Source: a plasmid
Sequence record: OW967251.1
Strand: one strand, 5' to 3'
Length of the DNA stretch: 64,000 nt
The position numbers and the translations under genes are program-made. The notes beneath the pieces were generated by a model. It saw only the letters and a program-made list of their open reading frames with translations, was not told where the DNA came from and made no database searches. Positions 5,001 through 9,791 of the stretch are shown piece after piece. Position 1 is the first letter of the stretch. Every line of letters begins with the position of its first letter.

Positions 5001-5068
5001 CGGGAAACTCGGTGGGTGGGGGCGCGGTATTTTGCCAAATCAGAAAGTCTTTTTCAGAGTTTCCCTAG
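4470..5068 (-). mobile_element. truncated copy A of a second IS5-family IS (left end plus 5' ~530 bp of the transposase gene, frameshifted)
   Basis: Terminal sequence gggaaactctgaaaaagac at 5049-5068 (reverse strand). Transposase N-terminus MKQMTFADAEYAGKRKQTRKELFLIEMDRVVPWKGL.... Reading continues in another frame as [48 protein letters not shown], then homology stops near 4470. Confidence 0.8.
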
Positions 5069-5107
5069 GCTGACAAGCCAAGCGCTGGATCGCAACCATC
5101 CATCACC

Positions 5108-5977
5108 TTATCCAGCTAGATCTGCCTCCTCCAATAAGTGCCGCACAAATCCCGGCGGGTGCAGATTTCCGGGAGGTTTGCGCCAGATCAGTTGGAGACG
5201 CTTTTCAAGCCCCGGGATGGGAAGAGCTACCAGCGCGCCACTGCGAACTTCGTCTTGTACTGCGGAAGCCATCACCAACGACACGCCGAGTCCCGCCCTC
5301 ACTGCTTGTTTGACTGCCTCGGTGCTGCCTAGCTGCATACCGCTGCGAGGCACGCCCAGTTCGCCAAAGTATTCGGTCAGAAGCCGTCCGGTACCGCTAC
5401 CCGGTTCACCTCCCAGCATCGGCAGGTCCACCAGACGATCACGTTCTATGCACCCTGCTTCAGCCAGCGCATGGTCGGGGCTGACGATAAGCACCAGCGG
5501 CTCGACCCGCCAGAGGCGGTGTTCGAAGTCGGGGTGAGGTAGCCACCATTCCATGATCGCGGCGTCGAGCTGGCCCGCCAGTAGCTGGTCGGCCACATCC
5601 GGGTTGGCGGCGATGCGCAGATCCACCTCGCCCCTCTCATTTGCGGTCGTCAGATAGTTGCGCACGAATGGCTGGAGAAGGTAGGTGCCGATGTTGGTGC
5701 TGGCCCCGACGCGCTCACGATTGCCATGCAGGGCTTCTAGCGCCCGGGCGTGCATGTCGAGCAAGGCGGTCGCATGCGGCATGAAGGCCAGCGCCCGTGT
5801 GGTAGGCTGGCAGCCGCTACGACTGCGCTGCACCAGCGTTACGCCGACCTGCTCTTCAAGCTTCTGCAAGTGCTGCGACACCGTCGGCTGGGCCAGCCCC
5901 AACGCCCTCGCCGCGCTCTGAAAACTGCCTGTTTGAACGATCGCTACCAGGCTCTTCAGCCAGACCGGATTCAACAT
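5108..5977 (-). CDS. ptxE: LysR-family transcriptional regulator, PtxE-like
   Basis: N-terminal [48 protein letters not shown]; last gene of the ptx cluster, overlaps ptxD stop. Confidence 0.8.
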
Positions 5978-6981
5978 GCGGCAGGCTCGGCCTTGGGCAG
6001 ACGGTTCGCAGCGTTGATTGGGCGCGCACCTGCCAATACCTGGATGATGTTCTGCGCTGCACAACGTTCAATCTCCAGGCGCACCGCGCGCACTGCCGAC
6101 CCTATGTGCGGAGTGAACAGCGTATTCGGATGCGCGAGCAGCGCAGGATCGATCAGCCGCGGCCGGTCCGCGCGAGCCCAGTCTTCCATTTCGAATACAT
6201 CCGCCGCATACCCGCCGAGCTGGCCTCGCTCAAGCGCCGCGAGCACGGCGGCTTCATCCACTACCGAACCACGACAGGGGTTTACAAGCAGAGCGCCCGG
6301 CCGTACGAGGGCAAGCAGCTCGGCGTTGACCAGATGCTGGGTATCGGCATTCAAGGGAAGCGCCAGCAGGATGAAGTCCGAGCTGGCGAAGAGTTCGCTG
6401 CACGCCACCTGGCGCAGGCCGAGCCGTTGCTCGGTTTGTGTATCCAGAGCCTTCGCCTCGTGGTACTGCAGGGTCGCGCCCCATCCCTGCAAGCGCTCAG
6501 CCATGGCCAGTCCGATGGCGCCCATGCCAAGGATGCCGACCGTAGCGTTATCCAGCCCCGTGCCGTAGAACTGTGGTTGCCAGCCCTGGAACTCGCCAGA
6601 GCGGACGAACGCATCTGCTGCCCGCAGATGCCGCCCCAGCCCCACCGCCAGTCCGATCGCCAGCTCGGCAGTCGGGACCGTCAACAGATCAGGCACGAAG
6701 GTCAGCCAGACCCCGCGGGCAGTACAGGCGTCCACATCGAAATTGTCGAAGCCCTTGAGCGCGCAGCCGACTACACGCAGCTCAGGGCAGGCTTGAAGAA
6801 AGTCTGCATCGACCCGATCGGGCATGAACGCCATCATCGCCTGAGCATCGCGACAGCGGCGCAGAATTTCCTCGCGCGTCAGCGTGCTGTCGGTCTGGTT
6901 GGTCACCAGCTCGCAATGTGGCGCCAGCAGTTGCAGGATCTCATCGTGTACTCGGTGAGTTATAACGAGTTTCGGCAGCAT
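5971..6981 (-). CDS. ptxD: NAD-dependent phosphite dehydrogenase PtxD (336 aa)
   Basis: [61 protein letters not shown]...[28 protein letters not shown]... D-2-hydroxyacid dehydrogenase fold. Matches my recollection of Pseudomonas stutzeri PtxD nearly residue for residue. The 590-aa ORF 5971..7743 is a read-through artefact. Confidence 0.9.
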
Positions 6982-6989
6982 GTTTTGTC

Positions 6990-7829
6990 CTATTTGAAAC
7001 GTTTGCGCAGCACGCCACTGAAGGCGTCTACTAGCGTGACCATGGCCAGGATGACCAGCAGGATTGCTGCAACCTCCTGGTACTGCATGATGCGCAGCGA
7101 GCCCATGAGTTCGAAGCCGATACCGCCGGCGCCAACCATGCCCATCACGGTGGAGGCGCGAAAGTTGTATTCCCAGCGGTAGATCGCCACGTCGGCGAAC
7201 TGCGGCGTCACCTGTGGCAAAACCGCGTGCAGCAGCACTTGCATCGGCGTAGCCCCCGCCGCCCGAGCGGCTTCCACCGGCGCTTCGTCGACGTGCTCGA
7301 TGGCCTCGGCGAAGAACTTGCTGACCATGCCGACCGAATGCAGACCCAGGGCAAGCACGCCCGGCAAGGCGCCGAACCCTACGGCTGCAACGAAGATGAT
7401 GCCCATGATCAGCTCCGGCACCGACCGCAGGGCATTGAGCAGCACCCGGGCAACACCGAACACAAGGGGGTGCGGCGCCGTATTGCGCGCTGCAACGAAG
7501 GCCACCACCAGCGAGAACACCACTGCGATGGCCGTACCGGCGATGCTCATCGCCAAGGTGTCGATCAAGGGGCGAATCCAGCTTCGATAGCCCGAAAAGT
7601 CTGGCGGCATGGCCTCGCCTGCCAGGGTCGCGATGGAGGGCAGCCCGTTCAGCAGCGTGGTGGCATCGAGCAGCCCCACGTACCAGCAGGCCAACAGCAC
7701 CACTCCGAATACAATCGCCACCTGCCCCAGCTGGCGCCACCAACCGAGGCCGAAGCCTCGAAGGATGTGCTCGCGTTGCTCTGCAGGCAGCGCCTGCACG
7801 TCGTAATGAGTAGACATATCGGTGCTCAC
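6990..7829 (-). CDS. ptxC: phosphite/phosphonate ABC transporter permease (PhnE-like), PtxC
   Basis: 279-aa polytopic membrane protein with ABC permease EAA-like region; gene order and 4-nt overlaps with neighbours. Confidence 0.85.
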
Positions 7830-8689
7830 ATCGTGGCGAAGTCGAGGCCGAGCAGCGATCCCATTTTGCGGATCACATCGTAGTCGGCGTCGGTGATTGG
7901 CGCGAAGGCCTCGGCCTTGAAGTTGCGCAGCACTTCGGGATCGTCGATACCGACGAATACATCCCGCACCTTGGTTTTCAGCTCGGGGCTCAGGTTCGAG
8001 CGCATCGCCCAGGGGTACTGGGGGTATTCGCCGCTGTAACCAAGTACTTTCACCTTGCTCGGATCGATTAGGCCACGTTCGACTACGTGATTGAAAATTA
8101 CCTCCGACAGCCCACCCGCATCGGCGTTGCCGTTCGCCACGTTGACGGCAACGGCGTCATGCGTGCCCACAAAATATTCTTCGTAGTCCCGCCCACCCGT
8201 CAAACCGGCCGTCTCAAGAAGCACGGTTTTGGGAATCAAATGGCTGGACGTCGATGCCCGGTCACCATAGGCCATCTTCTTGCCCTTAAGGTCGGCATAC
8301 TCATTCACGCCTGACGCCACATTGGCGATAATCACCGAGCGATAGGTCGGCTTGCCGTCGATGACCGTGACAGCGAAGGGCTCGATGTCGCTTTTGCTTT
8401 TGGCCATGACGTAGGACAGCGGACCGAAATACGCCAGGTCGATACGGCCAAAGCGCATCGCCTCAATCATCGAGGAATAGTCGGTGGTTACGATCAGCTG
8501 CACCTTCTTGTCCAGATGCTCTTCCAGATAATCCTTCAGCGGCTGGTTACGCTTGATCAGCTCGGAGGCGTTTTCGTCCGGCAGCAGGGCAACCTTTAGC
8601 ACATCCGGATCGGCATCGGCCGCTAGGGCGGACAAACTTGAAACAGCGGACAGCAAGCAAGTCAATAAGAGCGCGGATAAGCGTTTCAT
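7826..8689 (-). CDS. ptxB: phosphite/phosphonate ABC transporter periplasmic binding protein (PhnD-like), PtxB
   Basis: signal peptide [23 protein letters not shown]; PhnD-family sequence. Confidence 0.85.
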
Positions 8690-9513
8690 CGGGACATCTC
8701 CAGTGAAGGTTCGAGCATGACAGGTGGTTCAGCCGGAGTATTCGCTGGCTGAGTCGTAGAGCGGCCTGCATAGATGCGCTCAAGCTGCGCATCGGTGAGT
8801 TCCGAGGGCGCGGCATCGAAAACGATCTGAGAATCGGCCAGCCCGACGACGCGATCGGCGAAGCGGCGGGCATATTCGAGTTGATGCAGCGAAACGATGG
8901 CGGTGATGCCGTCTTCCTTGCAGATGTCGCGCAGCAATCCGAGAACACGGACCGAAGTGGCCGGGTCGAGACTGGCTACCGGCTCATCGGCCAGAATGAT
9001 CGCCGGCTGTTGCGCTAGCGCACGCGCGATGCCTACCCGCTGCTGCTGGCCACCGGACAGTTTGTCCACCCGGCTTAGCGCCTTGTCTGCCAGACCGACC
9101 CGAGCGAGGCAACTGAGCGCAATCTCCTGATCGGCACGCGGCAGAGGAAACAGCGAGCGGAGCGTGTTGTGAAAGGCCAGCCGACCGGTAAGCACATTAG
9201 CCAGTGCGCTTTGACGTTCGATTAGCTGGTGGTGCTGAAAGATCATGGCGGTACGCCGACGATGCTGACGCAAGGCCGAGCCGCTGCCGAGCTCACCGAG
9301 TTCGCTGGTGACACTGCCGCCAGTGGGCGTGACGAGTCGATTGAGACTACGGAGCAAGGTCGACTTGCCTGCGCCCGAGAGACCAAGCAGCACGGTGAAC
9401 TCACCACGCCGAAATGCAATCGAGGTATCGCGTAGGGCTGTCACGCCGCCTGGATAGACGACGCTCAACCGGTCGACCCGCAGCACGGCGTCCTGTATTG
9501 GATGGGGCATCAT
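8686..9513 (-). CDS. ptxA: phosphite/phosphonate ABC transporter ATP-binding protein (PhnC-like), PtxA
   Basis: Walker [10 protein letters not shown], signature [15 protein letters not shown], Walker B ILADEP. Confidence 0.85.
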
Positions 9514-9791
9514 TTGATCACCTTTTGCAATATTGCTGGCCGCACAATTGCGGTTCGCGATGCAAAGGATAGAAATTCCTTGTTAACGCACTGTTTCTAA
9601 AGGATGACATTTCGATGAATACTTCGAATCTGCCGTAGCGGGGCGGCAAGCGAAGCCGTGGAAGAACGGGCGCAACGTAGCGTCTTTCTTCACGCGGGAT
9701 ACAGGAGGCTTTGATTGATACTGCTGCGGATTCGCTACAGTAACGTTGGGCCAGAACGTAATGCCATCCAAGCAAGAGAGCGCACACTAGG

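Follow-up and report, generated by a model that had tools for sequence, protein, structure and literature searches.

An intact pseudomonad ptxABCDE operon between truncated insertion sequences on a Klebsiella pneumoniae IncF plasmid

Gene content of the ptx block

A plasmid stretch of 64,000 nucleotides (sequence record OW967251.1), called the window in the following, contains a block of five genes, ptxABCDE, of the type known for phosphite oxidation. They lie head to tail on the minus strand at 5108-9513, and all five open reading frames (ORFs) are intact, with no internal stop. The first gene, ptxA (9513..8686), encodes an ATP-binding cassette (ABC) ATPase of PhnC type with 275 residues (TIGR02315, ABC_phnC, 327 bits against a cut-off of 266), and its stop overlaps the start of ptxB in the sequence ATGA. 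The product of ptxB (8689..7826) is a periplasmic phosphite-binding protein of 287 residues, the first 23 of which form the signal peptide (TIGR01098, 286 bits against a cut-off of 112). The TIGR01098 family is that of phosphate/phosphite/phosphonate-binding proteins. It is followed by ptxC (7817..6990) for a PhnE-type ABC permease (TIGR01097, 293 bits against a cut-off of 217), which has 275 residues from the start chosen by the Prokaryotic Genome Annotation Pipeline (PGAP) and 279 from an alternative GTG start at 7829. The three importer genes follow one another directly, each stop overlapping the next start or lying close to it, and stand directly upstream of ptxD (6981..5971), named so by PGAP, which encodes an NAD-dependent phosphite (phosphonate) dehydrogenase of 336 residues. 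The last gene, ptxE (5977..5108), overlaps the stop of ptxD with its start by 7 nt; its product of 289 residues is a LysR family transcriptional regulator in the PGAP annotation (WP_004152692.1), and in NCBIfam it matches only LysR-type models, all under their equivalog cut-offs. The original prediction, made from the letters alone, had read the segment as a ptxABCDE operon of Pseudomonas type with its genes ordered as in P. stutzeri, a PhnCDE-type importer and a LysR regulator, and the ORFs and family assignments bear this out. The reference system is that of Pseudomonas (Stutzerimonas) stutzeri WM88, reportedly described by Metcalf and Wolfe in 1998, which has the same five genes in the same order.

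The predicted limits of the segment, 5068-9791, are right to within a few bases, because the block lies exactly between two perfect inverted repeats of 377 nt (4692-5068 and 9787-10163, 100% complementary). Its GC content had been put too high, at about 65%; the measured value is 61.0% for 5069-9786, against 55.8% for the window. Large antisense ORFs in the block (e.g. 6106..7182 and 4506..5537, both on the plus strand) were taken as by-products of the high GC content.

Identity of PtxD and PtxB

PtxD matches the P. stutzeri phosphite dehydrogenase (PTDH) structures in the PDB with E = 1e-216. The PDB chains are thermostabilised mutants; of the 17 engineered substitutions listed in PMC12676663, the 15 covered by the alignment were reverted. 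Compared with this back-mutated wild-type enzyme of WM88 (O69054), the window protein is identical at 333 of 335 positions (99.4%), the two differences being M26V and D162E. K76, M53, R237, E266, H292, R301 and the pair E175/A176 are all at the expected positions, and the GxGxxG motif is present as GMGAIG at 152. We take R237, E266 and H292 to be the catalytic residues, joined by K76, M53 and R301, and E175/A176 to be the pair that sets NAD specificity. The claim that the gene reads as PtxD essentially residue for residue is thus upheld, with an identity far above 50% and the catalytic and cofactor residues in place. In the NCBIfam scan no PtxD-specific model fired, and the best matches were glyoxylate reductase models under their cut-off (226 against 455 bits); for this reason the identity of PtxD was drawn from the PDB sequences. 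By its sequence, PtxD of the window is a phosphite dehydrogenase of the D-2-hydroxyacid dehydrogenase superfamily, and its V26/E162 allele is predicted to carry out NAD-dependent phosphite oxidation.

PtxB is equally close to a characterised protein. Against the crystallised P. stutzeri PtxB (5O2J/5O2K) the match has E = 5e-168 for 5O2J, with 255 of 264 residues of the mature protein identical (97%) and nine different. The phosphite pocket has been described as the capping tyrosine Y203 together with D16, Y49, Y94 and an STS-H motif (Bisson et al. 2017). All of it is kept in the window protein: D16, Y49, Y94 and Y203 were checked directly, and S124, T125, S126 and H155 of the motif were read off the ORF sequence by mature numbering. 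The P. stutzeri protein (Ps_PtxB) binds phosphite with a dissociation constant of 0.24 uM, and its hinge is described as A85-T93.

Flanking insertion sequences

What bounds the block? The insertion sequence (IS) fragments on its two sides were mapped by tblastn with the intact 326-residue transposase of a Pseudomonas locus (L008). The left fragment (4481..5064, minus strand), which carries the left arm of the inverted repeat, is the 5' part of an IS5-family element (ISPst7/IS1384-like) and encodes residues 1-125 and 127-174 of the transposase as a frameshifted pseudogene; in E. coli AW1.7, PGAP labels it 'IS5-like element ISPst7 family transposase, frameshifted, incomplete'. The right fragment (9787..10163, plus strand) consists of CTAG and a 373-bp 5' part of the same IS (transposase residues 1-103), inverted with respect to the left copy, with the PGAP label 'IS5/IS1182 family transposase, incomplete'. 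CTAG, the usual target of the IS5 group, is found at both IS/ptx junctions; the left one was read at 5065..5068, and the same junction occurs in many pseudomonad loci. Beyond the right fragment lies a remnant of 153 bp of pseudomonad DNA (10164..10316), a 100% match to 19727-19879 of two related loci (L012 and L017), which follows the truncated IS in Stutzerimonas loci and is contiguous with the IS fragment in another locus (L010). It is ended by IS26 (10317..11136, minus strand; PGAP IS26 transposase; terminal repeats GGCACTGTTGCAAA at 10317 and 11123-11136), which is the first element of the resistance mosaic and marks the limit of the pseudomonad-derived DNA. On the opposite side, the IS5-like ISKpn26 (2851..4046, plus strand, 1196 bp), named by PGAP and with its terminal repeats located, is a neighbour and not a ptx-bounding element. 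The block had been predicted to sit between IS5 and IS26. This needs correction: its immediate flanks are the two dead, inverted ISPst7/IS1384-like 5' fragments, and ISKpn26 and IS26 stand further out.

An active composite transposon in the window was considered and rejected, for both IS copies are 5' fragments that have lost their outer ends, and no duplication is present outside them. Because both copies are truncated, the ptx unit is now unable to transpose by itself.

Distribution on plasmids

The 64,000 bases of the window equal 62801-126800 of the K. pneumoniae plasmid NZ_MW650888.1 with 0 mismatches; that plasmid is IncFIB/IncFII and conjugative. The original prediction asked how widely the exact IS-bounded unit occurs, and the 4,718-bp ptx block was searched in the 72,556 plasmids of PLSDB. 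It is present in 623 records, 606 of them near full length, 613 at at least 99% identity and 568 from Klebsiella. The same IS flanks accompany it in 602 records, nearly all at 100% identity, including pKPN3 of K. pneumoniae MGH78578 (NC_009649.1), which is 100% identical to the window over 6,021 bp with both IS fragments. All five ptx genes are intact in about 600 records, without stops or frameshifts; truncated copies exist (H47, H97 and H98), and in one further record (H93) ptxE is not annotated. Among 5,426 complete E. coli genomes, seven carry the block, always on plasmids.

The unit on Klebsiella plasmids is already known and not new, because PGAP/RefSeq names ptxD, about 600 public plasmids, going back to pKPN3 of MGH78578, carry the unit and several papers list the cluster. 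On pKPN3, pBIC1a and the roughly 600 PLSDB plasmids the genes are already annotated as ptxD, phnCDE and LysR, and the window is one more copy with nothing of substance different. In the literature the cluster is listed in passing, for plasmid A of a Nepal outbreak, in the pBIC1a transcriptome report, and through the PtxD of K. pneumoniae KPNIH20 in an alignment. A full-text literature search found no paper testing phosphite use conferred by these plasmids. The ptxABCDE module of the Acinetobacter plasmid pCl107 (PMC10117892) is likewise plasmid-borne, IS-flanked and found in a clinical pathogen, with an environmental origin proposed. However, it is a distant allele, with 53% identity to P. stutzeri PtxD and 59-64% for PtxA-C, and represents an acquisition separate from that of the Klebsiella unit.

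Pseudomonad origin and route into Enterobacteriaceae

For the origin of the block, one genome per species was scanned. The block was found at 98-99.6% nucleotide identity in about 40 species of Pseudomonas, Stutzerimonas, Halopseudomonas, Ectopseudomonas and Metapseudomonas; Stutzerimonas stutzeri genomes have 99.4-99.6% identity to the window block, and the Pho-box-like repeat described below lies upstream likewise. Unlike the P. stutzeri system, the window block is on an enterobacterial IncF plasmid, has no htx genes in the window and is flanked by truncated IS copies. Its allele also differs by an excess of nonsynonymous changes, some of them at invariant positions.

A unit of 9,085 bp with the structure IS-ptx-IS is 99.9% identical in four Pseudomonas species (L007, L008, L011 and L013). 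It consists of one IS copy, the ptx block and, on the ptxE side, an intact IS of 1,197 bp with the 326-residue transposase. A 1.85-kb insertion splits the first IS copy; at the corresponding place, the P. fulva plasmid pVIM-24-ZDHY316 has an annotated gene for a group II intron reverse transcriptase (ltrA). Judged by its structure, this unit is a composite transposon, and the window holds a decayed version of it. The two have in common the ptx block, the IS1384/ISPst7-like element at the ptxE end and the CTAG junctions, whereas the ptxE-side IS is of full length in the Pseudomonas unit and both IS copies of the window are 5' stumps; the ptx block of the window also appears flipped relative to the truncated-IS/remnant junction of L010. 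As a separate observation, the chromosome of Pseudomonas sp. MPB23 has two ptx regions (L008 at 768661-789668 and L015 at 4088083-4109090) that are 100% identical over 21 kb, which indicates a duplicated or mobile element larger than the 9.1-kb IS-bounded unit.

How did the block come into Enterobacteriaceae? The enterobacterial copies are nearly identical among themselves and differ at 16-22 sites from the closest pseudomonad copies, which speaks for a single entry, after which the block spread together with its plasmid backbone. One enterobacterial copy is found in a quite different neighbourhood: plasmid 2 of Raoultella terrigena NCTC9997 (L085, 234729-245446), an old strain from ropy milk, is an IncFIB/IncFII plasmid that carries ptx beside arsR-arsD-arsA, and within 3 kb on either side of ptx there is no IS26 and no resistance gene but ars. 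Its allele is intermediate, with three of the eight PtxB changes discussed below, as is that of K. grimontii. Because this plasmid carries ptx beside ars and without IS26 in those 3 kb, the linkage of ptx to antibiotic resistance looks secondary, and this suggests that ptx was in IncF plasmids before the antibiotic-resistance mosaic was built.

The original prediction had described the operon as embedded in an IS26/Tn21 resistance mosaic. The part that stands is that foreign DNA lies here beside an IS26/class 1 integron/Tn21-family resistance region; the linked resistance genes that it named, aph(3')-Ia, mph(A), sul1, aadA2, dfrA12 and catA1, are all in the window. The part that does not stand is that ptx belongs to the mosaic. 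Only one IS26 adjoins the block, with ISKpn26 and IS1 on the other side, and no IS26 pseudo-compound or Tn21 structure encloses it; this single IS26 and the Raoultella context led us to reject ptx as a part of the mosaic by origin.

Leader region and expression

The 273 bp upstream of ptxA (9514..9786, minus strand) are a leader or promoter region carried over from the pseudomonad locus, with the same boundary in all related loci. A promoter scan upstream of ptxA found no sigma-70 consensus promoter, and promoter and terminator scans gave nothing useful near ptxA or after ptxE. At 9600..9621 on the minus strand there is a Pho-box-like direct repeat, TATTCATCGAAATGTCATCCTT, composed of two heptamers 11 bp apart at 108 nt upstream of the ptxA ATG, and it agrees with CTGTCAT-N4-CTGTCAT at 10 of 14 positions. 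Equivalent repeats recur in the roughly 60 distinct upstream regions of ptx that were compared, including those of operons whose PtxA is only 62% identical; they are located between about -74 and -130, most of them between -85 and -108. In an operon of the Pho regulon a Pho box takes the place of the -35 element, and phosphate starvation induces the operon through PhoBR. The ptx operon is said to be a member of this regulon, to judge from the title alone of a 2004 paper by White and Metcalf. From the conserved position of the repeat, the lack of a sigma-70 promoter and that title, we infer that the plasmid operon would be under Pho control. On the sister plasmid pBIC1a in E. coli TOP10, the five ptx genes have 2-5 reads per kilobase per million mapped reads (RPKM), in a medium presumed to be rich; such values agree with phosphate repression as well as with a silent locus.

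Possible exchangeable modules in pseudomonads

Outside the window, eleven pseudomonad genomes that do not have the ptxE-end IS (L023, L025, L028, L032-L035, L037-L039 and L041) contain the ptx block as a discrete unit of about 4,666 bp in differing surroundings. The two edges of the unit have related motifs: at one edge CCGCTTCTGGCCG stands directly before CTAG, and the other has CACTTATTGGCCG. Where these loci contain a complete site elsewhere, it is a palindrome such as GTCCGCTTC-TGGCCG-GAAGCGGAC. Between S. azotifigens and E. mendocina a neighbouring module of 4,939 bp is 99.98% identical but inverted, with the junction exactly at a 13-bp site. A module of 727 bp adjoins ptxE in either orientation; its ends are inverted GTTAGCGAC repeats, and it encodes a tyrosine recombinase of 206 residues that has the catalytic domain only. 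The last eight codons of ptxE and the next 40 bp in the window (5069-5130) differ from those of the genomes with a TGGCCG boundary, whose PtxE ends in HLLAG, and the two 3' ends part directly after CACTTATTGG.

The ptx block thus looks like one of several modules of 0.7-5 kb that are exchanged or inverted at sites of 13-24 bp with a TGGCCG core (for example in L037, 2212-2265, 7179-7191, 11842-11854 and 11913-12533), in a manner resembling site-specific shuffling, and the adjacent 206-residue tyrosine recombinase is the likely agent. It is improbable that the module boundaries are integron attC sites: the flanks of up to 10 kb at these loci contain no IntI homolog, and GTTRRRY does not fit the junctions. 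On plasmids, homologs of the recombinase occur widely and carry generic names. No match of this cassette-like system to a described one was found, though whether it has been described was not established.

Neighbouring regions of the plasmid

Between ISKpn26 and the left IS stump (4047-4480) PGAP annotates a partial hypothetical protein. Within this interval, 4260-4480 lies outside the canonical IS and is contiguous with the IS fragment in two pseudomonad loci (L029 and L010) at 92-94% identity, and 4047-4259 has no match among the related loci compared. On the other side of the block, at 10317-14957, a Tn3-family transposase fragment and aph(3')-Ia are enclosed by three complete or partial copies of IS26: one at 10317-11136, one at 14138-14957, and an inverted partial copy that ends at 13097. 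Perfect inverted arms of 736 nt span 10317-11052 and 12362-13097.

The interval 50-932 contains a gene for a small heat-shock protein (sHSP20) and a helix-turn-helix gene; on pBIC1a the corresponding hsp gene adjoins clp protease genes. E. coli AW1.7, a highly heat-resistant strain, also carries the ptx unit on a plasmid. The His-Xaa-Ser genes hxsD, hxsB, hxsC and hxsA (two radical S-adenosylmethionine maturases and a repeat protein) follow directly after IS1B at 31922-35286. Further nutrient-acquisition cargo at 40387-48219, 49774-57318 and 60133-64000 comprises an ABC transporter with acetamidase/formamidase and an ANTAR regulator, a complete fecIRABCDE ferric citrate system, and lacI-lacZ. 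The plasmid gathers metabolic traits generally, beyond ptx.

Substitutions on the enterobacterial branch

Did the operon change after its transfer? The window allele was compared with the pseudomonad consensus, and the differences were polarised by a second pseudomonad allele group. The enterobacterial branch has 13 nonsynonymous, 2 synonymous and 4 intergenic changes. Eight of the 13 nonsynonymous changes (8370, 8367, 8205, 8190, 8179, 8176, 8082 and 7865) are in ptxB, a gene with 20% of the coding length (binomial p = 0.001) and without any synonymous change; the others are at 7322 in ptxC, 6906 in ptxD, 5698 in ptxE, and 9509 and 8739 in ptxA. In PtxB, D162G, H172Y and N275K are common to the Raoultella/K. 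grimontii allele, while A107V, M108T, Q167R, Q171E and A203V are found only in the K. pneumoniae-type allele. A107V and M108T affect the first two residues of the Ps_PtxB hinge; by mature numbering these are A85 and M86, and together with H150 they are invariant in 79 homologs and changed here. Three of the eight states, D162G, A203V and N275K, are polymorphic in pseudomonad alleles too. The 273-bp leader has four changes, two of which (9594 and 9586) are just downstream of the Pho-box-like repeat. The pattern on this branch would fit either relaxed constraint or a re-tuning of PtxB, the numbers being too small to decide between them.

Probable function of the plasmid operon and alternative explanations

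Taken together, the segment is probably an intact pseudomonad ptxABCDE operon present as the remnant of a fossil composite transposon on a pKPN3-type K. pneumoniae IncFIB(K)/IncFII(K) plasmid. The way it would work can be outlined from the characterised P. stutzeri system. Under phosphate starvation the host PhoB would act on the Pho-box-like repeat upstream of ptxA and turn the operon on; phosphite would be bound in the periplasm by PtxB and imported by the permease PtxC with the ATPase PtxA; PtxD would then oxidise it to phosphate while NAD+ is reduced to NADH, and PtxE would serve as a LysR-type regulator. As for its history, the comparisons show that the block was taken from a pseudomonad between two IS5-family (ISPst7/IS1384-like) copies; it would have entered an enterobacterial IncF plasmid once and then spread with the backbone, and the IS26/integron region would have been assembled beside it later. 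Phosphite use conferred by the plasmid is plausible and would be partly redundant in Klebsiella. Klebsiella ATCC 9621 needs no PtxD to assimilate phosphite and reportedly does so by C-P lyase and PhoA; the ptx trait would therefore be an improvement and not a new ability in this genus.

Several observations weigh against a working operon in the present hosts. The 13:2 ratio of nonsynonymous to synonymous changes (N:S) is indistinguishable from neutrality, given 74% nonsynonymous sites (binomial p = 0.2), and differs from the 21:48 found between the two pseudomonad allele groups (Fisher p = 8e-5) as well as from the 79:68 of private differences within pseudomonad copies (Fisher p = 0.014). Five of the 13 changes fall at positions invariant in about 79 non-enterobacterial homologs (PtxB A107V, M108T and H172Y, PtxC G166S and PtxE S94T), and the enterobacterial ptx transporter could be impaired. 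A 10/14 match to the Pho box is estimated to occur by chance in about 1 in 10 regions of 300 bp, and its positional conservation is the sole support for the repeat. The low RPKM values on pBIC1a are equally compatible with a silent locus, and the literature searched had no expression or growth data for this plasmid allele.

Could the operon then be a cryptic hitchhiker, intact through recency, not usefully expressed or needed, kept by its linkage to the backbone and drifting to loss of function? The neutral-like N:S ratio would be expected, the invariant positions are hit at roughly their overall share (25-55%), the pBIC1a values and the phosphite use of ATCC 9621 agree with it, near-100% identity over about 600 plasmids reflects recent clonal spread and not independent selection, and truncated or incompletely annotated copies do occur. 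On the other hand, about 600 records retain all five genes without stops or frameshifts, the clustering of changes in ptxB is not predicted by uniform drift, the intermediate allele in Raoultella NCTC9997 and K. grimontii argues for long retention in enterobacterial plasmids, and repression in rich medium is what a Pho-controlled operon would show. We regard this explanation as improbable, though it is the most serious of the alternatives.

Two further readings are also improbable. In one, PtxB would have been remodelled stepwise after entry, so that its affinity or range may be altered; in the other, the pseudomonad ptx block would be a cassette-like module exchanged by a recombinase. Somewhat less probable still is that positive selection changed PtxB step by step, so that affinity, hinge dynamics or ligand range differ and even the purpose of the transporter may be another. 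Such a re-tuning would account for eight amino acid changes with no synonymous one, three of them shared with Raoultella/K. grimontii and five confined to the K. pneumoniae type, for two changes at the first residues of the hinge, and for the four changes in the leader. However, the counts are low, a ratio of 8:0 does not by itself depart significantly from neutrality (0.75^8, about 0.1), three of the states occur as pseudomonad polymorphisms, and the described ligand-contact residues are all unchanged. A mis-called gene, that is, an ordinary glyoxylate/hydroxypyruvate reductase beside a phosphonate (PhnCDE) importer, can be dismissed as hardly conceivable: glyoxylate reductase models head the NCBIfam hidden Markov model matches of PtxD and one submitter annotated it as 'bifunctional glyoxylate/hydroxypyruvate reductase B', but those scores are far under the cut-offs, the near-identity to a biochemically and structurally characterised PTDH already refutes it, and PtxB shares 97% of its residues with a protein for which a preference for phosphite has been demonstrated.

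Implications

The operon is widespread and already annotated, and the segment therefore adds little as a discovery. A phosphite oxidation system of high efficiency is present on about 0.8% of PLSDB plasmids, most of which come from K. pneumoniae of human clinical origin. A 2025 survey described ptxD as rare and undetected in mammal-associated metagenomes; against this claim of rarity, clinical plasmids are an overlooked reservoir of ptxD. Should the operon work, carriers of multidrug-resistance plasmids could gain an advantage from phosphite in fungicides, fertiliser substitutes and industrial effluent, and schemes of biocontainment or selection based on phosphite could be undermined by such plasmids. 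Finally, the substitution pattern gives a small natural experiment on a nutrient-acquisition operon after its crossing from Pseudomonas to Enterobacteriaceae.

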